Assembly (NCBI RefSeq): GCF_036971445.1
Contig: NC_091473.1
Location: 200,074,001 to 200,138,000 of the forward strand
Length of the DNA stretch: 64,000 nucleotides
Direction of reading: 5' to 3'
Origin: Narcine bancroftii
Lineage: Eukaryota
The notes under the pieces are model-generated. The model was given only the letters and a program-made list of their open reading frames with translations. It was not told the DNA's origin and did no database searches. Position 1 is the stretch's first letter, and each line of letters opens with the position of its first letter. Below, piece after piece: positions 2,666-64,000 of this stretch. Position numbers and translations under genes: made by a program.

Positions 2666-3700
2666 ACCATATATAGCAAGGTGCATTAACCATGGCCCCT
2701 AACCTCCAAAATCCAATCTCCCCATCTCCAATCACCTTTTTTATTTTTGTCTCTAGCCTCCTGGATCTTCTCTCTATACTTTTTAGTATGGACTGCAAAA
2801 TCCGAGATATTAGCTGATTCATCCGGGATGTATGTGCAACATTCAGTGCCAATTAAAGCACAAGTCACCCCCTCTTTCTGCTAAAATAAAATGAAGGGCC
2901 ATGCGATTTTGGAGGACTGTAAGTCGCATGGCGGCCATCTCTGTATTTATTGCCCGGACGTGAGATTGGGCTTCCCCAAGCGCCAGGTCCACAGCATTTA
3001 CTAGTTCATCTAGGGTGGCTGCTAATTCTTAAATCTCAACCTCAGCTCGTGTGGCTCCATATGTCGGGAAAAATGTCCGCATAAGATAATCGCCTTCAGC
3101 CACCCTTTTTTTGCTTTGCCCATGGGACGAGACTAGTACAGGTTAAGAACACTGTCATGGGGAATTATATAGGCCAGGTACAACATCCACACCAACCTTT
3201 AGGTGTACGGGTCAATTTAAACCCTTTCGTCTGATTCTAACATTCCTTTTCCCCAGGTAACCATGAATAAATTTTACGTCCATACACCCAATATGTGCCA
3301 TTTACAGGCTGCGGGATTCAGTCGTGTGACGGTCCAATTCTGCATGTAATTGGAAACTCCTAGTTGGTTCCTCAAAAGGAAGCAACACTCCAGAGTGAGT
3401 AGTTGCTAACTTGGTTTGTTTTGGTCGTATAGACGACCCTTTGTATTTATCTTCAGTGGTTGGATCACTGTTGTTGGGCAAGGTATATATATCAAATAAT
3501 TCATGTAGGGAGAGAGGGACTGCTACTAAGGGGACTCCTGACTTGCCATGGTGTGGTATTTTCGCACATACCCAACAATCTGTTTGATTTTGGTTCTTAG
3601 CATAATTAGTACAGAGAGATAAAATAATTTTTAGGTTCAACACGCAAAGCTATGATATGTATAAGTACAAATTGAAATAGGGGAAAAGTTTCATTATTTT
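2666..3700 (-). pseudogene. env: Retroviral env remnant (SU QTDCWVC motif; TM immunosuppressive domain), cut at 2666 by the RTE insertion
   Basis: NQTDCWVCAKIP and RLTVLQNRMALHFILAE...CALIGTECCTYIPD, with a stop and a frameshift. Confidence 0.88.
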
Positions 3701-6700
3701 ACTTTTATTTTCTGTCCCTTTTTACTCCTCTTTCCTTCCTTCTGTGGCTGGTGGTGAGTCCACTGGTCTCTTTATTCTTGACGTGTGTGTCCACCCCTTT
3801 TCCTTCATTCGAACTGCTGTTTCTGTGGTCAACAGTACTAGGTATGGTCCGTTCCACCGGGGCTGAAGCTTTTCTTCTTTCCACGACTTGATCAGGACCC
3901 AGTCACCAGCATTCACAGAGTGGATAGGGAAATCCAGAGGAGGGCTCTGTGCCAGCAGACCCTTAGCTTTTAAATCTGCAAGAGAAAACACATCATTACT
4001 TTCAACTGTAGGTATTCCTTCTACCCGCCCCAAATATGGGAGTCCAAATAACATCTCATAAGGGGATATTCTAATGTCTTGTCGTAGGGCTGTCTGAATT
4101 CTGAGAAGAGCTATCAGTGAGTTCTCCTTCTGATGTCCTGGTACATGTACTATGGCAATTCTTTCTGGTTTGATTAATGCTTCTAAAGTCTTTTCAATTA
4201 GTTGCTCATAAGCCAGTTCTTTTCCTCTTGCTGTTATCATTCCCTGTTCTTTCCAAATTTTCCCAAATGTGTGTACCACTCCAAATGCATATTTCGAATC
4301 TGTATATATGGTACCTTCCTGCCCTTCCAACAGTTCCAGGGCTCTCATCAGGGCTTACAACTCACAGGACTGAGCAGACCAGCTGCAGGGCAGACACCCA
4401 GTTTCCATTTGGGTTCTGGTAACTCCATCAACGACAGCATATCCATTGTATCTCTTCCCACCTATACAGCTTGACGATCCATCTATGAACCACCGTTGTC
4501 CTTCTGAGTGAGGCTCCTCTTCTAAATCATCTCGACTTTTCGTTTTTTGTAGCTCGATCACCTCGCTACAGTCGTGCCCCGAGTCCACTGGTTCTTTATC
4601 TTCTCCTGACGAGTACAGGATCTATGAAGGGTTCAGACTTTTATCTGTACAAATCGTTGTCATCTTTTTCCATTAAGATTGCCTCATACTTTAAAATTCT
4701 CGAGTCTGTCAACCATCTGTGAGACTTCTGAGTTAAAATGGTTCTGATAGTGTGGGGAGTGAATACAACCAGACTCCCTCCAAAGGTAAATTTTCAGCTT
4801 TCTTTCACTAATACTGCAGTGGCTGCTACTGTTTGAATGCATTCTGGCCACCCTCGTGATACTGGGTCCAACATTTTTGAGAGGAATGCCACAGGTTGCC
4901 TTTGGCCTCCTCTTTTCTGAGCTAGCATTCCCAAAGCTATCCCTTTTTCCACATTTACAAACAAGTGGAAAGGCTGATTAATAACAGGCAAAGCCAGGAC
5001 CGGAGCATTAATCAAGTCTTTCTTCAAGCAATTAAATTCCTGCTGTTCCTCTAGGTTCCACTCCACATTTTCATTTTCGCTTCCCAGTTTTTCATATAAG
5101 AATCAGACTTTCTGTGCATATCTATCTATCCACAGTATCTATCTATCCACAGTCTACAATACCCAATTAATCCGAGGAACTTCCTTATCTCCTTCTGATT
5201 TTTCGGTAAAGGCAGACCGGTGATACCAGCAATTCGTTCAGGTCCGATTCTCTTTTTCCCTTGACTAATCAAGTGTCCCAAATACCTTACTTCCTGTTCG
5301 ACCAACTGCTGTTTGTTCTTAGAAACTCTTAACCCTTTCTCTCCCAAGAAGTTTAGCAACTCAATAGTGGATTCACGAACTTCATTTTCCTTTGTTCCTG
5401 AAATCAACAGATCGTCTACTTACTGTATTAACTGTGTTCCCGGAGTGTATGGGTGTTCTTCTAAAACTTGTCCAAATAGATTGGGAGATTCTGTAAACCC
5501 TTGGGCGAGGACTGTCCATTGATACTGCTGTATCGAGTGGGTCCTCCCACTCGAATGCAAACAAGTCCCAACTATTCTCATCCAAGGGGCAACTCCAAAA
5601 AGTATCTTTCAAATCTACAACTGTAAACCACTCGTGTTCCGGGGGAATTCGATTCAATATGTTATAAGGGTTTGGGACTACTGGATATCGTGTCTGAACA
5701 ATCTTATTTAATTCTCGTAGATCCTGGACCAACCGGAAAGTCCCATCCGTTTTCCGTTCAGGGAGGATAGGGGTGTTATAAGGGGATGTGCAACTTTCTA
5801 GCATTCCATCTCGCAGCAAATTTTCAATAATCGGCTGAAGGCCTCTTCGTCTTTCTACAGAAATAGGATACTGTTTCATCCGTACTGGCTGGAACCCCTC
5901 CTTTAGGGTTATTTTGAGTGGGGCTATTTGCAGTCCTCCCGTTTCCCTCTCCGGCCCAGACACAGTCCCCAATGTCCTGGATATCCTCTTCCCTCAACAG
6001 GTACAATTTCACCATTATATGTCCTTCCACTGTACCAACTCCTATTCTAATTTGCAGATCTTGTCCTATCAGATTCACCCCAGCTTGAGGAACCAGAATC
6101 AGGTCTTCAATTGCCTCCCTGTCTTGATACTTCACACGGACCCCCTTGATCAGAGGGGTCTTCATGACTCTCCTCCGTACTCCCGATACCTTTAATTGTG
6201 GACTAGTGAATCTAACTCACTCCGGTATAATGTTTAATGATGATCTAGTAGCCTCTGTGTCCACCAGAAAAATGGCATCCTTTTTGTTGGGTCCCACCTG
6301 GAAGAAACCCCCGATCCCACTAATCCTCCCCAAAAGTCATCAGAGGGATATCATCCCTTTCCCTCTTTAATTCGAGACATTCCTGTTTGAAATGTCCCAC
6401 TTTCCCACAATAGTAACCCCCTGCCTGCTGGGGTTACCCAAAACTCAAGTACATCAACATAATAACAATCGGAACATTTCCATCGCTCAATTTCTCTATC
6501 AGAGGCGTCCCTCTGGTGGAGTCTAATCACCTGGATGGAAGGTATAAGGCTTGTTGAGGAGGACTCATGTTGAACTAAATCTTTGGGGTCCCAATCTTGA
6601 TAACCCTTTCGATACTTTATCTGCTGCCTCATTAAGTTAAGAAATCACATCTTTATCATGGGTATGTGCTCAACTTTAAATTGCAAACAAATTGGTATCT

Positions 6701-11639: not shown

Positions 11640-13063
11640 GCGTGACTCCAACAAGGGCCGGGCCGGGCAGGGCCCCGAACAGTCGGGATCCCCACACACC
11701 TCAGTCATTCCCCTCACGCTCCGCCTGTCCACCCGGGGCAAGTCTCACCTCCACCCCCGGGGCAAGTCTCACCTCCACCCCCGGGGCAAGTCTCACCTCC
11801 ACCCCCGGGGCAAGTCTCACCTCCACCCCCGGGGCAAGTCTCACCTCCACCCCCGGGCCCAGGCCATGGCCTCCTCCGTAGACTCGCCAGTTGCTGAGAG
11901 AACGGAGCTCAGGGACGTTCGAAGGCCCTGTGACGACAATGCGTAACGGACTGGCTCGGGCACACCGTCACTTGACTGGGCGACCGCAGCCCAGGAGGAG
12001 TGGCAGAGGGAGCTGCCAATCAGAGGAGGGGCGGCGCCTGTGCTTCCCTGTACATGCGGAAAGGGGCTTCCCCAGTCCTTTCCGGGTGGAATCTGGAGCA
12101 GTGTTCATTGGAACCGGGAATAAAGCAGCGAAGAATGAGGGGGATAAATAAATAAGGGAAACGGGAGTGTGGGATAAAACTGGCCCGAAATGGGGAGAAT
12201 AGACGGTCAGAGTTCATGTTGAGGGTTTTCACAGCCAAACGGTGCCGAAAGTGAGCGGTGAAGCTGCGCTCAGTGAGTGTCGGGCGGGCGGGCTCTGGGC
12301 TCAGTGATGGACAATAAGGAGAGAGCAGATTGAGAAAGAGGGTTTAGCATCATCCTGCTCAAACGTTGGTTCGGACTCAGCTGGAGATGTTGGCGATGGA
12401 ATCCGATTTCCGCGCTCCCTCCCTCCCTCCATCATGTTCCCGCGGCTTCAGTGGACGAGGCTCCCTTTCAAACGAACCCGCGTCTCCTCTCCCCGACCCG
12501 GGGAGCCCCACCTTCCGCCCGGGCCCGAGGGGAGCATTAATCTCCAGTGTGGAAGCAATAAATGGGAACCTTTCCAACAGCCCTAACTCCACATTGGATG
12601 AAAACTCAGATCAATGACGGATCTTCACTCACATGGTTCCAATCCTGTTCAATGAGGAAGCTCAGTTTCACCAAGTCCAGGCAAATGATGGAGCTCCGCC
12701 CCTTTAAGGAAGGGGGGTCAAGGACGTCCCATGGGGTGACGTCATCTGGTTCGCCAGACGGATGACGCTCAGAGTTCTTCATAAGCATGCGCAGTGGGTG
12801 TATCCCCGACAGGCGCTTGTTGGAGATCGAATATGATTCAGAACCGGGCGCCGGGAGCAGTTCGCAGCACCTGGACCTGGAACCGAGGCTCCCGTGGTTC
12901 TGGGCTTTGCAGCGCCCGGCGAGAGGACGTTTCTCTCCGGGTCCCGGCCCCATTCCCAATTTCTGTTTTCATTTAACCCGCGGCCCAGCTCTGCGGGACC
13001 CTCCATCGGGCCGAGCCCGCGCTGTGGGGCCCGGGGCAGGTCTACATTGACTTATCTCCACAG
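11640..13063 (+). promoter_or_regulatory. CpG island, probable promoter, non-coding first exon and first intron of the zinc-finger gene at 13066
   Basis: CpG-rich. CCAAT at ~12016. Candidate donors GTGAGC (12251) and GTGAGT (12273). CRE TGACGTCA at ~12738 and NRF1-like GCATGCGCA at ~12785. Acceptor TCTCCACAG ends at 13063, 2 nt before the ATG. Confidence 0.65.
11729..11857 (+). repeat. 24-bp minisatellite (GGCAAGTCTCACCTCCACCCCCGG) x~5
   Basis: Direct tandem repeat with period 24. Confidence 0.92.
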
Positions 13064-13065
13064 CG

Positions 13066-13905
13066 ATGAACCCTTTCCAGTGCTCCGACTGCGGGAAGAA
13101 ATTTAAACGTCTGGGTGACTTAAAGAGACACCAACGGGTCCACACCGGGGAGAGGCCCTTCACTTGCCCTGAGTGCAAGAAGGCCTTCGCTAGGTTGTCC
13201 AACCTTGATGTGCACCTGCGGATCCACACGGGGGAGAGGCCGTTCACCTGTCCCGATTGCGGGAAGGGGTTTGCCCAGATCACCAACCTACGGACCCACC
13301 AGTGGATCCACACCGAGGAAAAGCCTTTCTCTTGTCCCGAGTGCGAGAAGGCCTTCAGCAGGTTGTCCAGTCTTGAGGTACACCAGCGGGTCCACACAGG
13401 GGAGAGGCCGTTCACTTGCTCCGAGTGCGAGAAGGCCTTCAGCAGGTGGTCCCACCTTGAGAGACACCAGCGTGTCCACACAGAGGAGAGGCCCTTCATT
13501 TGTCCGGAGTGCGGCAAGGGCTTCACCCAGAACTCCCACTTGCAGATACACCAGCGGGTCCACACAGGGGAAAAGCCATTCACCTGCTCCAAGTGCAAGA
13601 AGTCCTTCACCAGGTTGTCCAACCTTGAGGTACACTGGCGGATTCACACTGGCGAGAGGCCCTTCACCTGCCCCGAGTGCAAGAAGTCCTTCAACAGGTT
13701 GTCCAACCTTGAGGTACACCGGCGGATTCACACTGGCGAGAGGGCGTTCACCTGCCCCAAGTGTGGCAAAGACTTCACCGACACCTCCAGTCTGCAGAGG
13801 CACCAGTGGGTCCACACTGGGGAAAAGCCGTTCACCTGCTTTGAGTGTGGGAAAGGTTTTACCCAGTCAGACATCCTGCTGAAACACCAGCGAGTTCACA
13901 CATAA
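13066..13905 (+). CDS. C2H2 zinc-finger protein, 10 tandem fingers, no KRAB/SCAN/BTB domain seen
   Basis: 279-aa intact ORF with ten CX2CX12HX3H units and TGERPF-type linkers, preceded by a splice acceptor. Confidence 0.9.
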   Translation: MNPFQCSDCGKKFKRLGDLKRHQRVHTGERPFTCPECKKAFARLSNLDVHLRIHTGERPFTCPDCGKGFAQITNLRTHQWIHTEEKPFSCPECEKAFSRLSSLEVHQRVHTGERPFTCSECEKAFSRWSHLERHQRVHTEERPFICPECGKGFTQNSHLQIHQRVHTGEKPFTCSKCKKSFTRLSNLEVHWRIHTGERPFTCPECKKSFNRLSNLEVHRRIHTGERAFTCPKCGKDFTDTSSLQRHQWVHTGEKPFTCFECGKGFTQSDILLKHQRVHT

Positions 13906-22734: not shown

Positions 22735-22934
22735 TTTTTTTTTTCTTTGGCTTGGCTTCGCGGACGAAGATTTATGGAGGGGGTAAAAAGTCCACGTCAG
22801 CTGCAGGCTCGTTTGTGGCTGACCAGTCCGATGCGGGACAGGCAGACACGATTGCAGCGGTTGCAAGGGAAAATTGGTTGGTTGGGGTTGGGTGTTGGGT
22901 TTTTCCTCCTTTGCCTTTTGTCAGTGAGGTGGGC
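22735..22934 (-). mobile_element. 5'-truncated RTE LINE 3' end
   Basis: HLTDKRQRRKNP...CNRCNRVCLSRIGLVSH C-terminal zinc finger, A-rich tail and TSD TCTCCAAAT. Confidence 0.88.
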
Positions 22935-22968
22935 TCTCCAAATACAAAAGAGAGAAAATGTATGAACC

Positions 22969-26479: not shown

Positions 26480-27675
26480 TGATTTATGAAATTATCTCTG
26501 GTCTCTACTCTCCCACTCCCTGCACTTCTCCCAACATTCAGGAGCTGGCACACAGTCCCTGCCTTTTTTTTCATGTTACTCATCTACTATTCCTTTAACT
26601 GCTTGCATCAAAATGTTAGCCTTTGCTTTCTGCTTATCCTCAGATGTCTGGACAAATGCTTTTTGTGTGATCTGTAGAAGCTGGGTTATTCCCTGCTCAT
26701 GCCAATTTTCTGTCTTTTGTAATTTTCTCTTAATGTCTGGGGCTGAGTTGGTAACAAAACCTGTTAGTACCAATTGTTCCCCTGCTGGGGATTCTATGTC
26801 GAGACCCCCATATTGTATATATATATGGTCCCAAAAATTGGTCTAACTGTTCAGCACATCCCTGGGGATCTTCTATCAGGGAGGTCAGTTCTTTCTTAAA
26901 GTTACACACTTCAGTACTGGTCAGGGGCACATTTACGAAACCGAGACCCTCTCCCATGGGAACTTCCCACAGTGGTCTCATCCAATTGGTTTCTAGCTTA
27001 TTAGGTCTGGGTTCCTGCTCCCTGGGAAATGAATCAAAGGGTTCTGCCCTTTCTTCCTGAAGAGTCTCACGCTGTTCTGAATTAAAGTTACCTCTCTCTC
27101 CTGCCAACAGAGGTGGTAATCGAGTGCTTTGTGAGCAAGTTATCATACCACTCCTGCTCTCTTCTCTCTTCTCTAGTGGTGGGGGAGGTGGGGAAGGTGC
27201 AGAAGGGTAGGTCATAGGAGGGGAAGGAAAGATAGGAGCCGGCATAGGAGGAACATAGGGTGGAGGGAGGGAATGTAACACATCCCAACCCTGTGATTCA
27301 GGGACAAGAGGTTCCTCCTCTCTCTTATCCCTGGATTCTTTCTCATTCAAAACCAGCTGTTCAATGGATCCCTTGAGCCAGCAGGCTGCATATTCCCTGC
27401 TCTCAACATTGTCTGGCTGGTTTTGATAGAGCCATAAGTTCAAACTTCACACATCCATTCATCCTCGGATCCGAATTTTGGCCAGTACACGGAGCTCCCT
27501 TTAACCGGGTATCCCACCCATTCATTACAACAATACCTGACCGTCGTCAGTTTGTCTTTACCGCGGGTCTTTCCTGTGCCCCACTCAGATAACATCATCC
27601 CAAGCGGGCTGTACGTAGCTATCTGGTGGTCACGTCCTGTGTCAGGACTCTCATCTCTACTGCCCGCTATTCCCA
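26480..27675 (-). pseudogene. gag: ERV C gag, frameshifted and internally deleted
   Basis: SPLGMML..W, YWPKFGS, PPPY late domain and capsid-like FKKELTSLIEDP / FVTNSAPDIKRKLQK spread over three ORF pieces. Confidence 0.85.
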
Positions 27676-36302: not shown

Positions 36303-37713
36303 ATGAACCTGTTTCAGTGCTCCGTCTGTGGGAAAAACTTAAAACGGTTGACTGAGTTAACAAGACACCAGGGAGAGGCTGTTCACCTGTCCCGAGTGCA
36401 AGAAGGCCTTCACCAGGTTGTCCAGCCTTGAGACACACCGACAGGTCCATACCGGGAGAAGCCCTTCTCCTGCCCCAAGTGAGAAAAGAGTTCATCCAGA
36501 TCTCCAACCTGCAGAACCATCAGTGGGTCCACACTGGAGAAAAGCCATTTGCCTGCCCTGAGTGTGATAAGGGCTGCACCAGGTTGTCCAGCCCTGAAAC
36601 ACACCGATTGGTCCACACTGGGGAAAGGCCCTTCACCTGCCCCATGTACAGCAAAGAGTTCACCAACACCTCCAGTCTGCAGAAGCACCAGCGGATCCAA
36701 ACTGAGGAAAAGCTGTTCGCCTGCCCTGAATGCGAGAAGACCTTCACTAACCAGTCCAGCCTTGCAATACACCATCATGTCCACAGCAGTGAGAGGCCCT
36801 TCTCCTGCTCCGTGTGGCAAAGGCTTCAACACCTCCAGCCTGCAGAGGCACCAGCAGGGCCACACTGAGGAAAAACCATTCAACCTGCCTTGAGTGTGCC
36901 AAGGTCTTTGCCCAGTCCTCCAACTGAGGTTGCACCAGCAGGCCCACACTGGGAAAAAGCCATTCACCTGCTCTGAGTTCAGAAAGGGGTTTGCCCAGTC
37001 CTCCAACCTGCAGAGCCACGAGTGGGACGATACCAGGGAAAAGCCATTCACCTGCTCTGAGTGCAGAAAGGGGTTTGCCCAGTCCTCCAACCGGCAGAGG
37101 CACAAGTGGGACGATACCAGGGAAAAGCCATTTGCCTGCCCTGAGTGTGAGAAGGCCTTCACCTGGTTGTCCACCCTTGAGACACACCGACGGATGTACA
37201 AGGGGGAGATGCCCTTCGCCTGCTTTGAATGCGATGAGAGGTTCAGTGAGTCCAGCAAGTTGAGGAGATGCCAACAAGTTCACACTAGGAAGAGGCCTTT
37301 CACTTGCCCTCAGTGTGGGAAGGGGTTTATCCAGACTTATGAGCTGATGTCCCACCAGCAAGTCCACTCCAGGAAAGGCCATTCATCTGTCCCAAGTGTG
37401 GGAGGGGCTTTATCCAATCCTCTCAGCTGCTGACCCACCAGCAGGTACACTCTGGGAAGAGAGCATTCTTTAGCCCCGTGCAGAAAGGGGTTCACCCAGT
37501 CCTCCAACCTGCTGACACACCAGTGGGGTACATCGGGGAGAGGCCATGCACCTGCTCCGTGTAGGAAGAGCTTAACCCAGTCCTCCAACCTGCTGAGACC
37601 TGCTGACTCACCAGTGGGTCCACACCAGGAAGAGGCTGTTCACCTGCTCCGAGTGTGGGTAGGGCTTCACCCAGTCAGACAATCTGCTGAAACACCAGCG
37701 AGCTCACACACAA
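36303..37713 (+). pseudogene. C2H2 zinc-finger pseudogene (multiple frameshifts, lost Cys/His)
   Basis: Same acceptor-ATG start (CCCCACAG|CAATGAAC), degenerate fingers in shifting frames, and the same terminal finger as 13066-13905. Confidence 0.88.
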
Positions 37714-37747
37714 AGTTTTCAGAATGTGGAATATTGAAACTCACTCA

Positions 37748-38593
37748 GAGTTCCAGCTGGTGAGCACGTCGGGTCAGAGGCAGTCATATGGTGCTCCTGC
37801 CAACTTTCAAACATTTCTCGCTCGATCATCTTTCATCTTTAAACAAAGAGGATAAAACATCCCCTTCACTATTTAATGTCATTGCTTTTGGAGATGATGA
37901 CCACCAGAGGAGCTAAAGCAGCAAAAAATGGTAAAGAAGATATGGCCCCTCTGACTGCAGACTCTGTCCCAGACATGTTGAAAAAACAACCACGGGAGAT
38001 AACAAGAGAAACAATTGCAGAAGGTCAACGGGAGATTAATTCTAAGCCTGAGAAGGTTTTATGAGCGATTTCAGCAATTGAAGAGCATTTCGAAACAGTG
38101 TTTGAAGTCTGTTAATGACCATAGATAAATGAGAAACTCAATGTGTCAGCCTCCAACTCCAAGTTGGCCTGGAAGGTGGTTAATTTGGAGAGTAAGAGCA
38201 GATGCCAAATCATTCAGATCTTGCACTGAAAGGAAGACACTGAACAAAGGCCAGTTAACTGACTTCTCAAATCTACTCATGGAAGTGTTTGGAAGAGAGT
38301 GTTTTGCTAAGCCTGGTCTCTGGTTCCCAAGCAAACCTCGGAACATTGTTCATGTTCAGTAATTCTTCGTTTTCGTCATAACCAAGAAAAGGATCGTGTT
38401 ATTCATGAAGCTTATCCCATCAGAAATTTGAATGATCAGGTCAACAAATTACATTTGTGGAAGATTTTTCCATGAAGTTTTGTGGAGATGTGGAAAGATT
38501 ACAGAGGTTATGACTGAGCTGTGCAAGAAAAGACTTAGACCCACTTTGTTTGTATCCAGCTCGTCTGCGGGTCACCTTGGAAAACGGCCACAA
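37748..38593 (+). mobile_element. L1 5'UTR + ORF1 fragment paralogous to 13942-15370
   Basis: MTTRGAKAAKNGKEDMAPLTADS, located at the same position after the ZNF end. Confidence 0.85.
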
Positions 38594-39231
38594 AAGAAGC
38601 CTTCACTTGCCCGATTGCATCAAGGGCTTCTGCGAGCGATCAAACTTGCTGAACACTAGAAAATTCACAGCAGAGACAGGCCATTCATCTGCCAGAGTGC
38701 GGGAAGGACTTCACTCAGTTATCCCAGCTGCAGACCCACCAGATGGTCCACACCATCCCGTCAGGAAGAGCTTTATCCATTCGTATGAGCTGAGGCCCAC
38801 CAGCAGGTACACTCTGTGGAGAGGCCGTTCATCTGCCCCAATTGTGGTAGGAGCATTATCCAGTCCTCCCACCTGCTGAACCACCAGCAGGTCCACTCTG
38901 GGGAGAGGCTGTTCAACTGCTCTGACTGCAGGAAGGGTTTCACCTATCCCTCCCAGGTAGTAACTCACCAGCAGGTACACTCAAGGGAGAGGCCAATCAT
39001 TTGCCCCAATTGCGAAAAGGGGTTCTCCCAGTCCTCCAACCTGCTGACACACCAGTGGGGTACATCGGGGAGAGGCCATGCACCTGCTCCATGTAGGAAG
39101 AGCTTAACCCAATCCTCCTACCTGCTGAGACACCAGTGTGTCCATGCCAGGGAGAGGCCATTCATCTGCTCAGTGTATGAAACTTCACCCAGTTGAACAA
39201 CCTGGTGAAATACCAGTGAGTTCACACATAA
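38594..39231 (+). pseudogene. Second C2H2 zinc-finger pseudogene segment (3' part of an array)
   Basis: ERPFICPNCG...HQQVHSGERLFNCSDC with frameshifts, followed by the uninterrupted 3' flank unit. Confidence 0.85.
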
Positions 39232-46874: not shown

Positions 46875-47195
46875 ACTTGTGGATCCGTTGGTGCTTCCAC
46901 ATGCCGCTGACTGGATGAAGCTCTTGCCGCAGTTGAAGGGCCTTTCCCTGGTGTGGACCCACTGGTGGATCAGGAAGTTGCATGACCTGGTGAACCCTTT
47001 GCTGCATTTGAGGCAGGTGGACGGCCTCTACCTGTTGTAGAACCACTGGTGCAGGTACAGGCTGGAGGTCAGGGTGAAGCTGTTGCCACACTCGGGACAG
47101 ATGAACGGCTTTTCACCGGTGTGGACCCGCAAGTGACTCAAGAGGTGGGAGGATCGGGCAAACTCCTTCCCACATTTGGGGCAGGTGAAGGGTCT
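46875..47195 (-). pseudogene. Decaying zinc fingers downstream of the premature stop
   Basis: In frame past the TAG: [40 protein letters not shown]..., then a second TAG. Confidence 0.8.
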
Positions 47196-49358
47196 CTACC
47201 TGGTGTGGACCAGCTGGTGTCTCAACAGATGGGAGGACTGGAAAAACCCCTTCCCACACTCGGGGCAGATGAATGGCCTGCCTCTGGTGTGTGCCTGTTG
47301 GTGTCTCAGCAGGCTGGAGGTATGGGTGAAGTCCTTGTCACAGACGGGGCAGGTGAAGGGCCCCTCTCCTTTGTGGGCCTGCTTGTGTATCTCAAGGTTG
47401 GCCAAACTGTTGAAGGTCTTCTTGCACTCAGAGCAGGTGAAGGACCTCTCCCTGGTGTGGATCAGCTGGTGTCTCATCAAGTGGGAGGGCTGAACAAACC
47501 CCTTCCCACAATCAGAGCAGATGAATGGCCTCTCTCCGGTGTGAACCCGTTGGTGTCTCAGCAGGCTGGAGGAATGGATGAAGCCTTTGCTACAGTTGTG
47601 GCAGGTGAAGGGCCTCTCCCCAGAGTGGACCCGCTGGTGAGCCAGCAGTTTGAAGTTATGGGTGAAGCCCTTGCTGCACTTGGAACAGACAAACCGGTTT
47701 TTACTGGTGTGGACCCTCTGATGCCTCTGCAGGCTGGAGGTCTGGTTGAAGCCCTTGCCACACTCAGGGCAGGTGAATGGTTCCTCTCCGGTGTGGACCC
47801 GCAAGTGACTCAAGAGGTTGGAGGATCGGACAAACTTCTTTCCGTACTTGGGGCAGTTGAAGGGTCTCTCCCGGTTGTGGATCAGCTGGTGTCTCAGCAG
47901 GTTGGAGGACTGGATAAACCCCTTCCTACACTTGGGGCAGATGAATGGCCTCTCTCTGGTGTGAACCCGATGGTGTCTCAGCAGGCTGGAGTTATGGGTG
48001 AAGCCTTTGCCACAGTCGTGGCAGGTGAAGGGCCTCTCCCCGGAGTGGACCCGCTGGTGAGCCAACAGTTTGGAGTTCTGGGTGAAGCCCTTGCCACACT
48101 CGGAACAAATGAACGGCTTTTCACCAGTGTGGATCCACTGATGCATACGCAGGTTGGAGACGTGGTTGAAGCCCTTGCCACATTCAGGGCAGGTGAATGG
48201 TTTCTCTCCGGTGTGGACCAGCAAGTGACTCACAAGGTGGGAGGACTGGACAAACAACTTCCCACACTTGGGGCAGGTGAAGGATCTCTCCTGGGTGTGG
48301 ATCAGCTGGTGTCTCAGCAGGTGGGAGGACTGGATAAACCCCTTCCTACACTTGGGGCAGATGAATGGCCTCTCTCTGGTGTGAACCCGTTGGTGTCTCA
48401 GCAGGCTGGAGGTACGGGTGAAGCCTTTGCCACAGTCGTGGCAGGTGAAGGGCCTCTCCCCGGAGTGGACCCGCTGGTGAGCCAACAGTTTGGAGTTCTG
48501 GGTGAAGCCCTTGCCACACTCGGAACAGATGAACGGCTTTTCATCAGTGTGGATCCACTGATGCGTCCGCAGGTTGGAGACATGGTTGAAGCCCTTGCCA
48601 CACTCAGGGCAGGTGAATGGTTTCTCTCCGGTGTGGACCAGCAAGTGACTCACGAGGTGGGAGGACTGGACAAACAGCTTCCCACACTTGGGGCAGGTGA
48701 AGGATCTCTCCTGGGTGTGGATCAGCTGGTGTCTCAGCAGGTGGGAGGACTGGATAAACCCCTTCCTACACTTGGGGCAAATGAATGGCCTCTCTCTGGT
48801 GTGAACCCGTTGGTGTCTCAGCAGGCTGGAGGTACGGGTGAAGCCTTTGCCACAGTCGTGGCAGGTGAAGGGCCTCTCCCCGGAGTGGACCCGCTGGTGA
48901 GCCAACAGTTTGGAGTTCTGGGAGAAGCCCTTGCCACACTCAGAACAGATGAACGGCTTTTCACCAGTGTGGATCCACTGATGCATCCGCAGGTTGGAGA
49001 CGTGGTTGAAGCCCTTGCCACACTCAGGGCAGGTGAATGGTTTCTCTCCGGTGTGGACCAGCAAGTGACTCACAAGGTGGGAGGACTGGACAAACAGCTT
49101 CCCACACTTGGGGCAGGTGAAGGATCTCTCCTGGGTGTGGATCAGCTGGTGTCTCAGCAGGTGGGAGGACTGGATAAATCCCTTTTTGCACTCGGAGCAG
49201 ATGAACGGCCTCTCCCTGGTGTGAACCCGTTGGTGTCTCAGCAGGCTGGACTCGGGGCAGGTGAAGGGCTTCTTCCTGGAGTGGCCCCGCTGGTGTCTCG
49301 TTAACTCATTCGATCTTTTGAAGTTCTTCCCGCAGTCGGAGCACTGAAACGGCTTCAT
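47196..49358 (-). CDS. C2H2 zinc-finger protein, 26 finger units (24 intact), no KRAB seen; 720 aa from the ATG at 49358
   Basis: Long open frame. The start is placed by the conserved acceptor CCCTACAG|CGATG. Unit 2 has an in-frame deletion and unit 19 has C->Y. The ORF ends at a TAG in a linker. Confidence 0.85.
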   Translation of the reverse strand: MKPFQCSDCGKNFKRSNELTRHQRGHSRKKPFTCPESSLLRHQRVHTRERPFICSECKKGFIQSSHLLRHQLIHTQERSFTCPKCGKLFVQSSHLVSHLLVHTGEKPFTCPECGKGFNHVSNLRMHQWIHTGEKPFICSECGKGFSQNSKLLAHQRVHSGERPFTCHDCGKGFTRTSSLLRHQRVHTRERPFICPKCRKGFIQSSHLLRHQLIHTQERSFTCPKCGKLFVQSSHLVSHLLVHTGEKPFTCPECGKGFNHVSNLRTHQWIHTDEKPFICSECGKGFTQNSKLLAHQRVHSGERPFTCHDCGKGFTRTSSLLRHQRVHTRERPFICPKCRKGFIQSSHLLRHQLIHTQERSFTCPKCGKLFVQSSHLVSHLLVHTGEKPFTCPECGKGFNHVSNLRMHQWIHTGEKPFICSECGKGFTQNSKLLAHQRVHSGERPFTCHDCGKGFTHNSSLLRHHRVHTRERPFICPKCRKGFIQSSNLLRHQLIHNRERPFNCPKYGKKFVRSSNLLSHLRVHTGEEPFTCPECGKGFNQTSSLQRHQRVHTSKNRFVCSKCSKGFTHNFKLLAHQRVHSGERPFTCHNCSKGFIHSSSLLRHQRVHTGERPFICSDCGKGFVQPSHLMRHQLIHTRERSFTCSECKKTFNSLANLEIHKQAHKGEGPFTCPVCDKDFTHTSSLLRHQQAHTRGRPFICPECGKGFFQSSHLLRHQLVHTR
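47820..49250 (-). repeat. 420-bp (5-finger) higher-order tandem repeat, 3 near-identical copies plus a partial copy
   Basis: Sequence at 48241, 48661 and 49081 is nearly identical, and the helices QSSHLLR-QSSHLVS-HVSNLRM-QNSKLLA-RTSSLLR repeat. Confidence 0.93.
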
Positions 49359-49360
49359 CG

Positions 49361-50412
49361 CTGTAGGGTCGAGAGGCTGTGAACAGGGGATGAATCCAAT
49401 GCAGTCTTGCCCCAGGGCCACAGCGTGTTCTCAGCACGAAGGAGGCTCCCGGAGAGCTGGGCCCTGGGTTAAATCAACACCGAGACTGGGATAAGGGCCG
49501 GGACTCAGAAGAAGTGTCCTCAAGACGGGCGTTGCAAGCCCCTGAACCACGGAATCCACCCGTTCCGGGATCCGGTCCTGCGCTCTGCAACCAGCGCTGA
49601 ATCGCCTTCGGTCTCAGACCAGTGCTTGAACGGCGCGCGGAGGAAAAATTGTCACACACCAGGATGACGTCACGGAAAAAGGTTCGAGGTCGTTGCCCCC
49701 GCCCTCTGACCTGATTGACAGATGCACTTGGGAGCTCAACCAGATCGGGGAGAGGAGACGCGGGTCGGTTTTAAAGGGAGCCTCGTCCACTGAAGCCGCG
49801 GGAACATGATGGAGGGAGGGAGCGCGGAAATTGGATTCCATCGCCAACATCTCCAGCTGTGTCCGAACCAACGTTTGAGCAGGATGATGCTAAACCCTCT
49901 TTCTCAATCTGCTCTCTCCTTATTGTCCATCACTGAGCCCAGAGCCCGCCCGCCCGACACTCACTGAGCGCAGCTTCACCGCTCACTTTCGGCACCGTTT
50001 GCCTGCGAAAACCCTCAACATGAACTCTGACCGTCTATTCTCCCCATTTCGGGCCAGTTTTATCCCACACTCCCGTTTTCCTTCTTTATTTATCCCCCTC
50101 ACCCTTCGCTGCTTTATTCCCTCTTGTTCCCGCCTCAAATAAAAACTTCGCTTTCCGGATGCAGATTCCACCTGGAAAAGGCTCTGGGAAGCCGCTATGC
50201 GCATGCGCAAGGACGGCTCTGGGCGCCACGCCTCCGATTGATCCTCCTCCAGGGTTGCGACCGCCCGTTACGTGACGGCATGCGCGAACTGGAGCGTGTG
50301 CGCGTTGACGTCACAGGGTCCGTGAGTGGCGTTCCCCTCAGCAACGGGCCGGTCCACGGAGGAGGTCTGGGAATGGAGGTGAGAATTGCCCCGGGTGGGC
50401 GGATGGAACGGG
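49361..50412 (-). promoter_or_regulatory. CpG island, probable promoter, first exon and intron of the minus-strand ZNF gene
   Basis: CpG-rich. NRF1 palindrome TGCGCATGCGCA at ~50198, CRE TGACGTCA at ~49665 and ~50306. Homologous to 12060-13063. Confidence 0.68.
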
Positions 50413-52550: not shown

Positions 52551-53850
52551 ATTCCTCCCTTTTCTCTTTACTGTGTATTTCTGATTAAACTGTATTATTG
52601 TTCACCTTTTGTTTCCTCAAATTGTTGTAACATGAGTTTAATTTGTCTTTGTTTTTTAATACCATCTGCTGAGCAAATTAATCTAGTGATAACACATCGT
52701 AGGATGGCCAATCCAATAATCATTAAACCATATATTGCAAGGTGCATTAACCATGGCCCCCAACCTCTGAAATTCCAATGTCCCCATATTTGTCATCAGC
52801 CTCCCAGATTTTCTGTCTTACTTTTTAGTATGGACCACCAAATCTGAGATATTAGCTGATTCATCCAGGATGTATGTGCACATTCAGAGCCAATTAAAGC
52901 ACAAGTCCCCCTTCTCTCTGCTAAAATAAAATCACATGCCATGCGATTTTGGAGGACTGTAAGTCGAATGGTGGCCATTACTGAAGTTATTGCCCAGATT
53001 TGAGATTGGGCTTCCCCAAGTGCCAGGTCTGTAGCATTTACTAGTTTGTCTAAGGTGGCTGCTAATTCTTGAATCTCAACCCCAGCTCGTGTGGCTCCAT
53101 ATGCCGAGAAAAAAATCCACATGAGACGATCGCCTTCTTTTGCTTTGCCCATGGGACGAGACTATACAGGTAGCTGGTTAAGAACATGGACATGGGGAAT
53201 TAAGTACGCCAGGTAACAGCATCCACTCCAACCTTGAGGTGAACGGGTCAATTTAAACCCTTTTGTCTGATTTCAACATTCCATTTCCCCGGGTATATAT
53301 ATATCAAATAATTCGTGTAGAGAGAGAGGGACTGCTACTAAGGGGACTCGTGACTTGCCATGGTGTGGTATTTTCGCACATACCCAACAATCTGTTTGAT
53401 TTTGGTTTTTAGCATAATTAGTACATAGAGAGATAAAATAATTTTTAGGTTCAACATGCAAAACTATGATATGTTTAAGTACAAATTGAGATAGTAAGTG
53501 TAAAAGTTCATTATTGTAGTTTTCTGTCCCTTTTTACTCCTCTTTCTTTCTCTCTGCAGTTGGTGGTGGGTCCACTGGTCCCTTTATTCTTGAAGTGCGT
53601 GTCCACCCCTTTTCCTTTGTTCGGACTGCTGTTTCTGTGGTCAACAGTACCAGATATGATCCGTTCCACCGGGGCTGAAGCTTTTCTTCTTTCCACAATT
53701 TGATCAGGATCCAGTCACCAGCAGTCACAGAGTGGATAGGGAAATCCAGAGGAGGGCTCTGCGCCAGGAGACCCTTAGCTTTTAAATCTGCAAGAGAACG
53801 AGAGACTGCCAGTAAATAGTTCCTTAAAAACACACCATTACTTTCAACTG

Positions 53851-54085
53851 TGTGGGCAGCAACCTCCTTTGAAGAAGACCGCAGAGCCCACCTCACTGAC
53901 AAAAGACAAAAGAGGAAAAACCCAACACCCAACCCCAACCAACCAATTTTCCCTTTCAAACGCTGCAACCATGCCTGCCTGTCCCGCATCGGACTTTTCA
54001 GTCACCAACGAGCCTGCAGCAGGCGTGGACATACCCCTCCATAAATCTTCGTCCGCGAAGCCAAGCCAAAGAAAAAAGAAGAAAA
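53851..54085 (+). mobile_element. 5'-truncated RTE LINE 3' end inserted in ERV B integrase
   Basis: Same C-terminus as 22735-22934, A/G-rich tail, absent at the equivalent ERV A site (~4010). Confidence 0.88.
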
Positions 54086-55634
54086 AGGTATTCCTTCTAC
54101 CCACCCCAAATATGGGAGTCCAAATAACATCTCATAAGGGGAATTATAACGTCTTATTGTGGGGCTGTCCAAATTCTGAAAAGAGCTATCAGTAAGGGTA
54201 ATTTAGTTTCTTCTTTTACTTTTGTAATTTGCCTTTTTAAAATGGCATTCATTCGCATTCACTCTTCCCGAACTCTGTGGATGCCATGGTGTATGCAGCT
54301 TCCATTCTATCCCTAAGGCTTCACAGACCAGGCTGTGAATTTTAGAAGCGAAGTGCATTCCCCAATCTGAATCGATGGACTCGGCTATTATATATCAGGG
54401 CACAATTTGTTCCAGAATTATTTTTGCCACTGCTTGTGCAGTGGCAGTGGCAGTGGGGAACGCTTCGACCCATCTCGTGAAGTGGACCACTATTACTAGT
54501 AGAAATTTCCATCGCTGGACCTTAGGGAGTTTGGTGAAATCCACTTGTATCCGCTGAAATGGCTGGATTGCTAAAGGTTGTCCTCCTCCAGGTATAGCTT
54601 TCATAACTTTCTTATTAACCTTTAAACAGATCACACAGCGGTTCACTGTCTATCTTGCTAGGATATAGACTCCCCTGTGGCGTAAGTTCATAAGAATGCA
54701 TCACACAGTGCTCGTGCTCCCCAGCCGGGTGATTTCTTTATTTAACAATTGTCTTCCATTGGGGAGCCACCATTTTCCACCTTCTGTCTTCTTTGCTCCC
54801 ATCTTTTCCATTTGTTCTTCTTCAGGGAGGGAAAAGATAGGCACCTTCTCTGAGAGGTATCAGAGTCATCATGTTCACTGTTCCTGATTGTGCTGCTTGT
54901 CGGGCCAGTTCATCAGCCATCCGATTTCCTTGCTCTTCTGGTACATGTACTCCCAGACTGGTACATGTACTATGGCAATTCTTTCTGGTTTGATTAATGC
55001 TTCCAAAGTCTTTTCAATTAATTGCTCATGAGCTAGTTCTTTTCCTCTCGCTGTTATCATCCCCCGTTCTTTCCAATTTTTCCCAAATGCGTGAACCTCA
55101 CCAAATGCATATTTCGAATCTGTATATATGGTACGTTCCTGCCCTTCCAACAGTTCCAGGGCTTTCATTAGGGAATATAACTTGCAGGACTGAGCAGACC
55201 AGCTGCCAGGCAGACGCCCAGTTTCCACCTCGGTTCCGGTAACTCCATCAATGATAAGCATATCCAATGAATCTCTTTCCATCTGTACAGTTTGACGATC
55301 CATTTATGAACCACCATTGTCCTTCCGAGAGGGCCTCCTCTTCTAAGTCATATTGACTTTTCATTTGTAGCTCAACCACCTCGCTACAAGTCAAGCCCTG
55401 AGTCCTCTGGTTCTTTATCTTCTCCTGACGAGTACAGGAACTGTGAAGGATTCAGACTTTTATCTGTACAAATAGTTAAGTCATCTTTTTCCATTAAGAT
55501 TGTCTCATACTTTAAAATTCTCGAGTCTGTCAACCATCTGTGAGATTTCTGAGTTAAAATGGTTCTGACAGTGTGGGGAGTGAATACAATCAGACACCCT
55601 CCAAAGGTAAATTTTCGGCTTTCTTCCACTAATA

Positions 55635-56186
55635 TAGGTACACGATCCTTTATCTGGAACCCTTGAGGGACAGTGTGTTCTGAATTTTAGATTTTTCCGG
55701 ATTTTGGAAAGCCCACCTGAATTGTGCTGCTGTATCCACCCCCATCCCTGTCCAGTCTCCCAGCTGTCTCGCCATTCGGCCGTCTCGCCACACCGCGGTC
55801 CCGCGGCCGTCTCGCCCCACCACGGTCCCGCGGCCGTCTCGCCCCACCGCGGTCCCGCGGCCGTCTCGCCCCCACCGCGGTCCCGCGGCCGTCTCGCCCC
55901 CACCGCGGTCCCGCGGCCGTCTCGCCCCCACCGCGGTCCCGCGGCCGTCTCGCCCCCACCGCGGTCCCGCGGCCGTCTCGCCCCCACCGCGGTCCCGCGG
56001 CCGTCTCGCCCCCACCGCGGTCCCGCGGCCGTCTCGCCCCCACCGCGGTCCCGCGGCCGTCTCGCGCCCGGCAGTTTCCCCCAACCGACTTCCTCGACCG
56101 CCTGGCAGTCTACCCTGGCGGTCTCCCCTTACCGGATTTTGAAGCTTTCTGTATTTTAGATGTCCGGATAAAGAATCATGTAATTG
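55635..56186. mobile_element. Tigger/Tc1-mariner-like MITE in ERV B pol
   Basis: TIR TAGGTACACGATCCTTTATCTGGA / TCCGGATAAAGAATCATGTAATTG with TA on both sides. Absent at ERV A ~4812. Confidence 0.8.
55777..56066. repeat. 28-bp CpG-rich minisatellite (CCGCGGTCCCGCGGCCGTCTCGCCCCCA) x~10
   Basis: Direct tandem array. Confidence 0.93.
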
Positions 56187-56895
56187 TATTGGCATGGCTG
56201 CTACTGCTTGAATGCATTCTGGCCACACTAGTGATACTGGGTCCAACATTTTTGGGAGGAATGCCACAGGTTGCCTGCCTTTGGCCTCCTCTTTTCTGAG
56301 CTAGCACTCCCAAAGCTATCCCTTTTTCCACATTTACAAACAAGTGGAAAGGCTGATTAATAACAGGCAAAGCCAGGACCGGAGCATTAATCAAGTCTTT
56401 CTTCAAGCGATTACATTCCTGCTGTTCCTCTAGTTTCCACTCCACATTTTCTTTTTCGCTTCCCAGTTTTTCATGTAAGAATCGGACTTTCTGTTCGTAT
56501 CTATCTATCCACAGTCAGCAATACCACTGTAGGTATAGACAGACCAGTGATACCAGCAATTCGTTCAGGTCCGATTCCCTTTTTCCCTTGACTAATCAAG
56601 TATCTCAAATACCTTACTTCCTGTTCCACGAATTGCAATTTGTTCGGAGAAACACTTAACCCTTTCTCTCCCAAGAAGTTTAGCAACTCGATGGTGGATT
56701 TGTGAACTTCATTTTCCTTTGTTCCTGAAATCAACAGATCATCTACATACTGTATTAACTATGTTCCTGTAGTTCTTGGGTGTTCTTCTAATACTTGCTC
56801 TAAAATTTGTCCAAATAGATCGGGAGATTCTGTAAACCCATGAGGGATGACTGTCCATCGATACTGCTGTTTTCTTCCCGAGTGAGGGTCCTCCC

Positions 56896-57630: not shown

Positions 57631-60118
<2,488 letters not shown>

Positions 60119-61071
60119 TTTTTTTTTAATTTTATTTTTCATACTATAAACCACATTGATCAAGATACATACATTTTCCTTTTCAAATATATACAGTGTC
60201 GTTTTCTCCCCTCCCTACCTCCCCTCCCATTCATTTAAAGTTCAGAATCTAAGATACATTAAACCCGTCAAACAATGTTGTCACTCAATAAAAACAAACA
60301 AGAAATTCCACTGAGTCAGTTCTTTTCATTCTCTTCTCCTGTCATTTTAGGTGGTAGATGTCCACGGTAGGTTTTCTTTATTGTGTTTCATGTATGGCTC
60401 CCATATTTGTTCAAATATTGTAATATTATTTCTTAAATTATATGTTATTTTTTCTAATGGAATACATTTATTCATTTCTATATACCATTGTTGTATTCTC
60501 AAGTTATCTTCTAATTTACAGACTGACATAATACATTTTTTTGCTACAGCAAGGGCTATCCTAACAAATCTTTTTTGTGCACCATCCAAATCAAGTCCAA
60601 ATTCTTTGCTTTTTATGTTACTTAGGAGGAAGATCTCTGGGTTTTTTGGTATATTACTTTTTGTGATTTTATTTAATATCTGGTTTAGATCTTCCCAAAA
60701 TTTTTTGTCCAGATTGCATGAATTGTTGTTCCCATTTCCTTTTTACAGCGAAAACATCTGTCAGATACTGTTGGGTCCCATTTATTTAACTTTTGAGGTG
60801 TAATATATAACCTGTGTATCCAGTTATATTGTATCATACGTATCCTCGTATTTATTGTATTTCTCATAGTTCCTCGTTCTCCTTTTCTTGTAGTTTAATA
60901 TACATGTTTGTTACAAATTTTTTGATTATCATTGTGTCTGTAATCACATATTCAAAATTACTTCCCTCTGGTAACCTCAGACTGCTTCACAATTTGTCCT
61001 TCAAGTAGGATTTCAGTTGGTAGTATGCCAACACTGTATCGTGAGTTATATTATATTTATCCTTAAATATA
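60119..61071 (-). mobile_element. L1-clade LINE 3' end
   Basis: Poly(T) at 60119 and RIRMIQYNWIHRLYITPQKLNKWDPTVSDRCFRCKKEMGT. Confidence 0.88.
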
Positions 61072-62645
61072 GTGGGAGTGGGAGGCGGCGGCCCCAGTCC
61101 AGGCACAGGGAGAGCAGCAGCGGCCCCGGCCCCGGTCCGGGTGAAGGGTAGACGGCGGCGGCCCCGATACGGGCAGGAGCAAGGGGGAGACGGCGGCCCC
61201 GGCCTCGGTCGAGTGAGGCAGGCGGAGGCCCCGGTCCAGGCAGGGAGTGGGAGGCGGCGGCCCCAGTCCAGGCACAGGGAGAGCAGCAGCGGCCCCGGTC
61301 CGGGCGAAGGGTAAACGGTGGCGGCCCCGATACGGGCAGGAGCAAGGGGGCGACGGCGGCCCCGGCCTCGGTCGAGTGAGGCAGGCGGAGGCCTCGGTCC
61401 GGGCAGGGAGTGGGAGGCGGCGGCCCCAGTCCAGGCACAGGGAGAGCAGCAGCGGCCCTGGCCCCGGTCCGGGCGAAGGGTAGACGGCGGCGGCCCCGAT
61501 ACGGGCAGAAGCAAGGGGGAGACGGCGGCCCCGGCCTCGGTCGAGTGAGGCAGGCGGAGGCCCCGGTCCGGGCAGGGAGTGGGAGGCGGCGGCCCCAGTC
61601 CAGGCACAGGGAGAGCAGCAGCGGCCCCGGCCCCGGTCCGGGCGAAGGGTAGACGGCGGCGGCCCCGATACGGGCAGGAGCAAGGGGGAGACGGTGGCCC
61701 CGGCCTCGGTCGAGTGAGGCAGGCGGAGGCCCCGGTCCAGGAAGGGAGTGGGAGGCGGCGGCCCCAGTCCAGGCACAGGGAGAGCAGCAGCGGCCCCGGC
61801 CCCGGTCCGGGCGAAGGCAAGACGGCGGCGGCCCCGATACGGGCAGGAGCAAGGGGGAGACGGCGGCCCCGGCCTCGGTCGTGTGAGGCAGGCGGAGGCC
61901 CTGGTCCGGGCAGGGAGTGGGAGGCGGCGACCCCAGTCCAGGCACAGGGAGAGCAGCAGCGGCCCCGGTCCGGGCGAAGGGTAGACGGCGGCGGCCCCGA
62001 TACGGGCAGGAGCAAGGGGGAGACGGCGGCCCCGGCCTCGGTCGTGTGAGGCAGGCAGAGGCCCCGATACGGGCAGAGAGTTGGAGGCGGCGGCCCCAGT
62101 CCAGGCACAGGGAGAGCAGCAGCGGCCCCGGTCCGGGCGAAGGGTAGACGGCGGCGGCCCCGATATGGGCAGGAGCAAGGGGGAGACGGCGGCCCCGGCC
62201 TCGGTCGTGTGAGGCAGGCGGAGGCTCCGATACGGGCAGAGAGTTGGAGTCGGCGGCCCCAGTCCAGGCACAGGGAGAGCAGCAGTGGCCCCAGCCCCGG
62301 TCCGGGCGAAGGGTAGACGGCGGTGGCACGATACGGGCAGGAGCAAGGGGGAGACGGCGGCCCCGGCCTCGTTCGAGTGAGGCAGGCGGAGGCCCCGGTC
62401 CGGACAGGGAGTGGGAGGCGGCGGCCCCAGTCCGGGCACAGGGAGAGCAGCAGCGGCTCCGGCCCCGGTCCGGGCGAAGGGTAGACGGCTGCGGCCCCGA
62501 TCCGGGCAGGAGCAAGGGGGAGACGGCGGCCCCGGCCTCGGTCGAGTGAGGCAGGCGGAGGCCCCGATCCGGGCAGAGAGTGGGAGGCGGCGGCCCCAGT
62601 CCAGGCACAGGGTGAGCTGCGGCGGCCTCGGCCCCGGTCCAGGCA
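61072..62645 (+). repeat. 163-169-bp CpG-rich 5'UTR monomer array (9 full + 1 partial)
   Basis: Unit starts at ~61077, 61246, 61409, 61578, 61747, 61916, 62079, 62242, 62410 and 62579. Confidence 0.92.
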
Positions 62646-62865
62646 GTATGGACCGACCTAGGAGGGGAAGCAGGCCCCTCCAGCCCGGTTAAGAAACCTG
62701 CATAGGAGAAGGCCACTCCGATATAAAACCTACGACCCAAGGACCTCGCTGCCACGTCCCAGCTTGCTTGGCCACGGCACACGAACCATGGGTGTAAAGG
62801 GTGGGGCCAGTACTGCGCGCACTGCACTCCACCTAAAAGCTCCTTTGCGCAGGCCCGAGGACAAG

Positions 62866-63676
62866 TCCACGTCCTCCCCCTCCGCGTCCTCCCCCTCCGC
62901 GTCCTCCCCCTCCGCGTCCTCCCCCTCCGCGTCCTCCCCCTCCGCGTCCTCCCCCTCCGCGTCCTCCCCCTCCGCGTCCTCCCCCTCCGCGTCCTCCCCC
63001 TCCGCGTCCTCCCCCTCCGCGTCCTCCCCCTCCGCGTCCTCCCCCTCCGCGTCCTCCCCCTCCGCGTCCTCCCCCTCCGCGTCCTCCCCCTCCGCGTCCT
63101 CCCCCTCCGCGTCCTCCCCCTCCGCGTCCTCCCCCTCCGCGTCCTCCCCCTCCGCGTCCTCCCCCTCCGCGTCCTCCCCCTCCGCGTCCTCCCCCTCCGC
63201 GTCCTCCCCCTCCGCGTCCTCCCCCTCCGCGTCCTCCCCCTCCGCGTCCTCCCCCTCCGCGTCCTCCCCCTCCGCGTCCTCCCCCTCCGCGTCCTCCCCC
63301 TCCGCGTCCTCCCCCTCCGCGTCCTCCCCCTCCGCGTCCTCCCCCTCCGCGTCCTCCCCCTCCGCGTCCTCCCCCTCCGCGTCCTCCCCCTCCGCGTCCT
63401 CCCCCTCCGCGTCCTCCCCCTCCGCGTCCTCCCCCTCCGCGTCCTCCCCCTCCGCGTCCTCCCCCTCCGCGTCCTCCCCCTCCGCGTCCTCCCCCTCCGC
63501 GTCCTCCCCCTCCGCGTCCTCCCCCTCCGCGTCCTCCCCCTCCGCGTCCTCCCCCTCCGCGTCCTCCCCCTCCGCGTCCTCCCCCTCCGCGTCCTCCCCC
63601 TCCGCGTCCTCCCCCTCCGCGTCCTCCCCCTCCGCGTCCTCCCCCTCCGCGTCCTCCCCCTCCGCGTACTCCCCCC
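62866..63676 (+). repeat. 15-bp VNTR, 54 units, mostly TCCGCGTCCTCCCCC
   Basis: The first unit is TCCACG, followed by 52 perfect TCCGCG units and a final 16-bp variant. Confidence 0.95.
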
Positions 63677-64000
63677 TCAAAATATGCTCACAAACTCAAG
63701 CTAGCATGCTGGAACATCAGAACCATGCTAGACAAGGCTGACAGCCACCGACCTGAATGTCGGTCTGCCCTCATTGCACATGAACTCCTCAGACTTGACA
63801 TCGACATAGCCGCTCTCAGTGAAGTCCGCCTGGCAGATGTAGGCAGCCTCCAAGAACGCGGCGCGGGCTACACACTCTACTGGTCTGGCAAGCCTTCGGA
63901 TGAACGACGCCTATCTGGTGTAGGCTTCATGGTCAAGAGCTTCATTGCCTCCAAACTCGAAAATCTTCCGACAGGCCTCTCGGAACGAATCATGTCCATG

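Follow-up and report, generated by a model that had tools for sequence, protein, structure and literature searches.

Two copies of an RTE-clade LINE lie in the stretch of Narcine bancroftii DNA analysed here (64,000 nucleotides, hereafter the window), and in both of them the endonuclease ORF is preceded by a tandem array of GC-rich monomers of about 169 bp. Judged by its sequence, the array is L1-monomer-like in structure, and the element that carries it is not an L1. By analogy with the rodent elements, we lean towards the view that the array is a monomeric promoter that arose convergently in an RTE. The arrays and the tethers that follow them are:

1384 to 1793, plus strand: monomer array of copy A, 2 full monomers and a 69-bp terminal partial monomer (1725-1793)
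1794 to 2014, plus strand: tether of copy A, differing from that of copy B at 3 of 221 bases, with an in-frame ATG at 1937
61074 to 62644, plus strand: monomer array of copy B, 9 full monomers (163-169 bp) and a 69-bp terminal partial monomer (62576-62644)
62645 to 62865, plus strand: tether of copy B, with a conserved RTE/AviRTE-like UTR block (62703-62865) and an in-frame ATG at 62788

An earlier note on this DNA had described head-to-tail monomers of ~169 bp, in 2.3 and 9.3 copies, and had placed the longer array at 61072..62645. TRF bore out the monomers (array B: period 169, 9.4 copies, 93% matches, 61074-62644; array A: period 172, 2.4 copies, 1384-1793). The longer array lies where it had been placed, its exact limits being 61074 and 62644. 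Monomer lengths ranged from 163 to 172 bp over both arrays, the alignment of A and B revealed one monomer family, and the terminal partial unit that closes both arrays differed at one position between them. As had been proposed, the monomer is built of sub-repeats, namely five related sub-units of 32, 38, 32, 41 and 26 bp. Specifically, the GGCGGCGGCCCC 12-mer had 19 exact matches in the window, 19/19 inside the two arrays (shuffle mean 0.00), and the monomer contained three GGCCCCGG motifs. No monomer was found in the 64-kb window outside the two RTE-linked arrays. A GC-rich 28-bp VNTR of 10.6 units is located at 55777-56069; its kinship with the monomer was rejected, as the score (19) fell below the shuffle mean (21.9).

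The two arrays, which had been said to begin near the same monomer position, begin at exactly the same monomer base, and their AT-rich flanks are unrelated to each other. A start base shared by both window copies (2/2) would be expected in about 1 in 169 cases under uniform truncation, which argues for a promoter. In addition, both arrays presented the CpG-island composition of the rodent-L1-type monomeric promoter, with a GC content of 0.77-0.79 and a CpG o/e of 0.78-0.79 (410 and 1571 bp), compared to an o/e of 0.47 for the window. Departures from the monomer majority affected 14 of 434 CpG sites (13 by transitions) and 38 of 1406 other sites. The claim of little CpG decay was therefore upheld in part: since the 5′ coding pieces adjoining the arrays also showed an o/e of 0.72, the CpG richness is owed in part to youth. 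The first bases of the monomer form a GT-box-like nonamer, the single match of this kind, while exact GC-box, YY1, ETS, NRF1, E2F, TATA and CCAAT motifs (consensus motifs) and G-quadruplex patterns (0) were absent from the monomer. A TATA-like heptamer is present in the copy B tether (62722-62728).

Downstream of the tethers and, in copy A, also upstream of the array, the two copies comprise:

2015 to 2226, plus strand: 15-bp VNTR of copy A, 14 identical units encoding Ser-Ser-Pro-Ser-Thr, in frame with the endonuclease
2227 to 2665, plus strand: 5′ part of the copy A endonuclease, stopping at the inversion point
1 to 1269, minus strand: continuation of the copy A ORF, residues 138-559 of the full-length relative P0017, continuing past the window
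1270 to 1383, no strand assigned: 114 additional bases that separate array A from the inversion junction
62866 to 63675, plus strand: 15-bp VNTR of copy B, 54 units encoding Ser-Ser-Pro-Ser-Ala from the ATG at 62788
63676 to 64000, plus strand: start of the RTE endonuclease domain of copy B, continuing past the window

The endonuclease was 98-99% identical to the Narcine bancroftii protein P0001 and matched PF03372 with an E of 7.7e-05, just under the curated cut-off. Compared to the EN+RT protein P0017, the window pieces covered residues 1-132 and 138-559 with 72-77% identity, the RT core lying beyond the window. By its sequence, the element classifies as an AviRTE-related RTE-clade LINE (RTE-BovB) with a single ORF. 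Membership of the L1 clade was rejected, as there is no ORF1 and the endonuclease relatives are single-ORF RTE-type proteins; between array and endonuclease, the only coding sequence is an in-frame Ser/Pro extension from the ATG at 1937 or 62788. The AviRTE family proper was also rejected, since identity to the manakin proteins was 69% at the amino-acid level and the element formed a separate branch, beside sea-urchin proteins; AviRTE members show about 0.10 substitutions per site (PMC4844689). Other endonuclease matches came from carp, amphioxus, sea urchins, shrimp and suboscine birds. A quick tree was built from 24 rows (the window and 23 proteins hand-picked from 120 listed, with no labelled BovB outgroup); it joined the window and P0001 to two Diadema proteins with a support of 98, and the bird proteins fell elsewhere. 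The closest non-ray relatives were indeed sea-urchin (Diadema) proteins (P0015, P0043 and P0124; 83% over the endonuclease piece), a likeness that hints at horizontal transfer.

Both window copies are broken and their 3′ ends lie beyond the window; the family had been called active, a description that we replace with young and abundant. The minus-strand part of the copy A ORF contains two in-frame stops, and about six codons were lost at the break between strands. This 5′-inverted layout fits twin priming as known in L1 (PMC2912911), an analogy to be read beside the suggestion in the same paper that L1 is almost alone in the early top-strand cleavage from which such inversions arise. The 114 bases at 1270-1383 had no match elsewhere in the window; they may stem from donor flank that was co-transcribed, or be filler DNA. 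A post-insertion inversion as their source was disfavoured, given that they did not match the target-site continuation in the paralogous 52600-53295. If these bases were on the RNA, the copy A transcript began upstream of the array. The earlier note had passed over the inversion, the 114 bases and the second, coding VNTR. In a related RTE (L014:645-1783 / L015:3-1141), the endonuclease and RT pieces also differ in strand, and a large gap separates them.

Copy A is inserted in an endogenous-retrovirus-like fragment, and broken fragments of this type (RT, RNase H and integrase C-terminal matches) occur at 2664-5993, 26730-27446 and 52725-56300. Copy B adjoins further AT-rich L1-like sequence, the L1-like pieces at 58256-61073 having opposite orientations (58256-59152 minus, with zf-RVT; 59016-60011 plus). 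The window also contains C2H2 zinc-finger tandem arrays with an 84-bp period (13051-13905, 36356-39123 and 46929-49430), the largest of which shows a 420-bp higher-order repeat with 93% identity, and short RTE-like 3′-end fragments at 22791-22937 and 53856-54032 (58-65% identical to the P0017 C-terminus).

Comparison with relatives placed the array in the history of the element. Tether positions 59-221 matched the 5′ UTRs of 9 out of 23 metagenome loci with 78-84% identity, and the UTR block (1852-2014 in copy A) resembled AviRTE consensus heads (PMC4844689, supplementary file 5; by eye, in several entries and over their first ~400 letters). The 5′ UTRs of relatives measured ~560-760 nt and that of AviRTE ~800 bp (PMC4844689), so the premise of short unique RTE UTRs does not hold in this lineage. 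In BLAST self-comparison of related heads (up to 900 nt of UTR, about three families), 0/8 contained a tandem array; BLAST overlooked a short duplicated motif in the heads of L011 and L013. On this comparison, the array is a lineage-specific addition to an older RTE UTR, replacing the unique head of the relatives. In all 11 related loci, 368-401 nt separated the VNTR seed from the endonuclease start, compared to 40 nt past the last unit in the ray element, and no ATG was present at the ATG site in 9/9 related loci covering it. In the ray family, therefore, the head and the start codon are new and ~340 nt of UTR have disappeared.

The coding 15-bp VNTR seems to have grown from ancestral UTR sequence into a Ser/Pro-rich N-terminus read from the new ATG. 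Unit counts over copies were 1, 4, 5, 14 and 54, including 5 in P0001, 4 in P0121 and one in contigs of sequencing run X6. The units were identical in 14/14 cases in copy A and 52/54 in copy B, with a different base in each copy, and the copy B frame shifts at the VNTR end. For the conserved UTR block of the window and of L001, L002, L006, L011, L013 and L016, a two-hairpin fold was predicted from 7 related sequences; 7 out of 36 pairs were changed on both sides and 96.8% of cells pair, values computed on the same sequences from which the structure was derived. As AviRTE SINE tails retain this block, it may act in cis as an RNA element.

Monomer variants indicated that the array was inherited. 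Full B monomers differed by 5.1% on average (36 pairs, nine monomers), whereas tether and ORF differed between copies A and B at 8 of 543 bases (1.5%); the array is therefore older than the insertions and was not expanded afterwards. Since the 15-mer arrays are near-uniform within each copy, the 15-mer expands late and the 169-mer variants are old. Among the 11 full window monomers, G28 together with C99 was present only in A2 and B9, the last full monomer of each array. A third locus was provided by P0135, an antisense RefSeq gene model ("formin-2-like") that runs through the tether and into the array, probably as an artefact of annotation; on the minus strand of array B (60987-62688), all three antisense frames are open. 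This locus contained at least 3.9 monomers, and monomer number thus varies between 2.4, at least 3.9 and 9.4. Peptides of its last full monomer matched G28 and C99, extending the pattern to 3/3 loci, its terminal unit was partly generic, and B5-B8-type variants recurred in it. The P0135 match breaks off around monomer position 92, where there is either a splice junction in the gene model or a start that is out of phase. Antisense-translation searches recovered only P0135, plus a weak 32% match (P0136). Variants were shared in a mosaic fashion across positions, and the outermost A monomer carried one base otherwise restricted to terminal units. Such sharing fits unequal exchange or recombination, or template slippage.

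A search for sequencing runs listed 18, all as contigs and none recorded as RNA. Four of them, with three organism codes, were compared with 62476-62865 (one monomer period and the tether), giving 3766 pieces in X1, 720 in X5 (guessed to be RNA), 842 in X6 and 24 in X7. Contigs bridged the monomer-tether junction in X5, X6 and X7. Across several runs, the contigs indicate that the architecture is real, abundant and present beyond one assembly. In X1, the monomer peak (~570,000) was close to the tether depth (~490,000), and a large free satellite in this run is unlikely. In X5, X6 and X7, monomer depth was about 2- to 5-fold tether depth, depth being a weak measure and not a copy number. Joints within contigs showed that sub-units can also be arranged otherwise (backward jumps of 50, 67 and 131; skips of 90), and estimates of mean array length drawn from allele ratios at monomer positions contradicted each other. 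Among the contig ends listed there was no pile-up of 5′ starts, which contigs cannot show. At 62838, 49 X1 contigs and 6 X6 contigs leave the tether sequence, as would be expected of an older family or a SINE with the same UTR block. Viral contigs gave 0 monomer matches, and two tether-pattern matches in them were dismissed as chance 18-19-mers.

In the promoter model, the unique head of relatives would be replaced by an inherited array of GC-rich 169-bp monomers whose number varies. Each monomer would hold a transcription start signal, with RNA polymerase II probably initiating in every unit, so that the 5′ end of a new copy would fall on monomer base 1, with working promoter units retained behind it. 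As the monomers are ~95% alike, a start signal at outer base 1 would also be present in the inner units, and the case for a repeated promoter chiefly draws on this. The monomer itself may derive from a GC-rich minisatellite of ~33 bp, five units of which formed a higher-order repeat, and arrays would regrow by unequal exchange or template slippage. The model is supported by the variable counts, the position-specific variants, the junction-bridging contigs and the 8/8 relatives without an array, as well as by two AviRTE-mobilised SINEs that independently gained GC-rich GGCCCCGG heads (BuceSINE and ManaSINE2; PMC4844689).

In mouse L1, monomer number is variable, truncation sites are shared and match capped ends, and subtypes prefer positions (PMC6454616); young subfamilies carry 3-4 monomers on average, and a second monomer raises activity (bioRxiv 2021.12.03.471143). 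The ray RTE shares with L1Md A, Tf and Gf the CpG-rich tandem monomers in variable number before a unique tether, and position-preferring subtypes at the tether end were found as in rodent L1. The proposed likeness to mouse L1 thus held for the tether, the variable number, the 3′ partial unit and the position-specific variants, with in-phase starts at two copies. Unlike mouse L1, the ray RTE belongs to another LINE clade, lacks ORF1 and has a monomer that is itself a five-unit higher-order repeat. Its array starts at the base after a unit boundary (as the boundary is defined here), and it had 0 matches to a YY1 core, whereas a YY1 site lies near the start in the mouse Tf and Gf types. L1 elements of several mammals have acquired tandem units in their 5′ UTRs (PMC5381506). 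AviRTE and the ray RTE have a homologous UTR block (by eye) and a related endonuclease; compared with AviRTE, the ray element misses the ~340 nt of UTR and has the new ATG and the coding VNTR. The part of the AviRTE heads compared by eye contained a diverged two-fold module of ~70 nt and no 169-bp array.

The array could instead be a passenger, a GC-rich VNTR grown from a captured head whose monomer number has no additive effect, with transcription coming from host flanks or a single element and the shared start being a reverse-transcriptase stop or chance. We regard this as a possible but rather doubtful explanation. It draws on the ~33-bp sub-repeats of the monomer and on the second VNTR in the same element (1 to 54 units), whose instability means that repeat growth needs no promoter role. 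It likewise draws on the 114 extra 5′ bases in copy A, on the VNTR-like sub-unit rearrangements in contigs and on the absence of classic promoter motifs from the monomer save the GT-box-like nonamer; all of these but the sub-repeats also count against the promoter model, as do the ORF CpG o/e, close to that of the array, and a phase known from two copies only, with the P0135 end ambiguous. Moreover, VNTRs clustered at the 5′ end are found in the fungal FoTeR and MoTeR non-LTR elements. These resemble the ray RTE in their variable tandem 5′ repeats and differ in having many short heterogeneous motifs, the available part of the paper describing no phased monomer or promoter role (PMC12857005). 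The exact common start in both window copies, the old, inherited and position-specific variants and the position of the array in place of the relatives' unique head argue against a passenger VNTR.

A further alternative is self-cleavage of the RNA in each monomer or in the tether, which would set the 5′ end of a read-through transcript. HDV-like ribozymes define 5′ ends in some RTEs. Both array starts are a G after an A, as in HDV-like cleavage, and read-through is possible in copy A. However, no Rfam match was better than E 3.3 in 60900-63000, and an HDV-like descriptor, run without a positive control, gave 0 folds with a P2 of at least 5 bp on both strands of two stretches. The last partial monomer plus tether folded no better than shuffles (z -0.06), and efficient tandem cleavage would leave the last unit only. 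We consider this explanation very improbable. Even less credible is an RTE-independent satellite in or beside which RTEs inserted, which finds some support in the excess monomer depth of X5, X6 and X7, weak measure as it is, and is opposed by the X1 depths, by the lack of monomers elsewhere in the window and by the three known arrays, all of which join the tether via the same partial unit.

The A-modules of the Dictyostelium element TRE5-A are tandemly repeated. The A-module is a 200-bp 5′ promoter module in a non-LTR element, of another clade and kingdom than the ray RTE (PMC3159450, PMC5633606, PMC5911963). Among titles and abstract openings, which did not extend to Dfam, Repbase and most subscription papers, we found no RTE with a 5′ monomer array; Dfam, Repbase or preprint supplements may already contain this consensus. 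The accessible text on a sea-snake RTE (bioRxiv 2020.02.27.968685) held nothing on UTR arrays, and the accessible parts of PMC6007223 and PMC4476161 had no bearing on the array.

How LINE promoter arrays are maintained despite 5′ loss is still a puzzle in mouse (PMC6454616). If the promoter model is true, the ray RTE would be an independent non-L1 case, without ORF1 and in a young, abundant family, that separates general mechanisms from L1-specific ones. The mechanisms in question are unequal exchange and template slippage, and here the traceable monomer variants would help. The finding is also relevant to the question of how RTEs that move horizontally come to be transcribed after entering another host. 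As a tentative scenario that we think doubtful as a whole, a marine invertebrate would have been the source from which the RTE entered rays by horizontal transfer. The element would have assembled a self-regenerating promoter compatible with its host out of a GGCCCCGG-rich minisatellite, and would also have turned its former UTR into a new Ser/Pro N-terminus. If that were so, monomeric promoters would be a recurring solution across L1 and RTE, and GGCCCCGG-rich heads a recurring transcription route for AviRTE-type elements in new vertebrate hosts.
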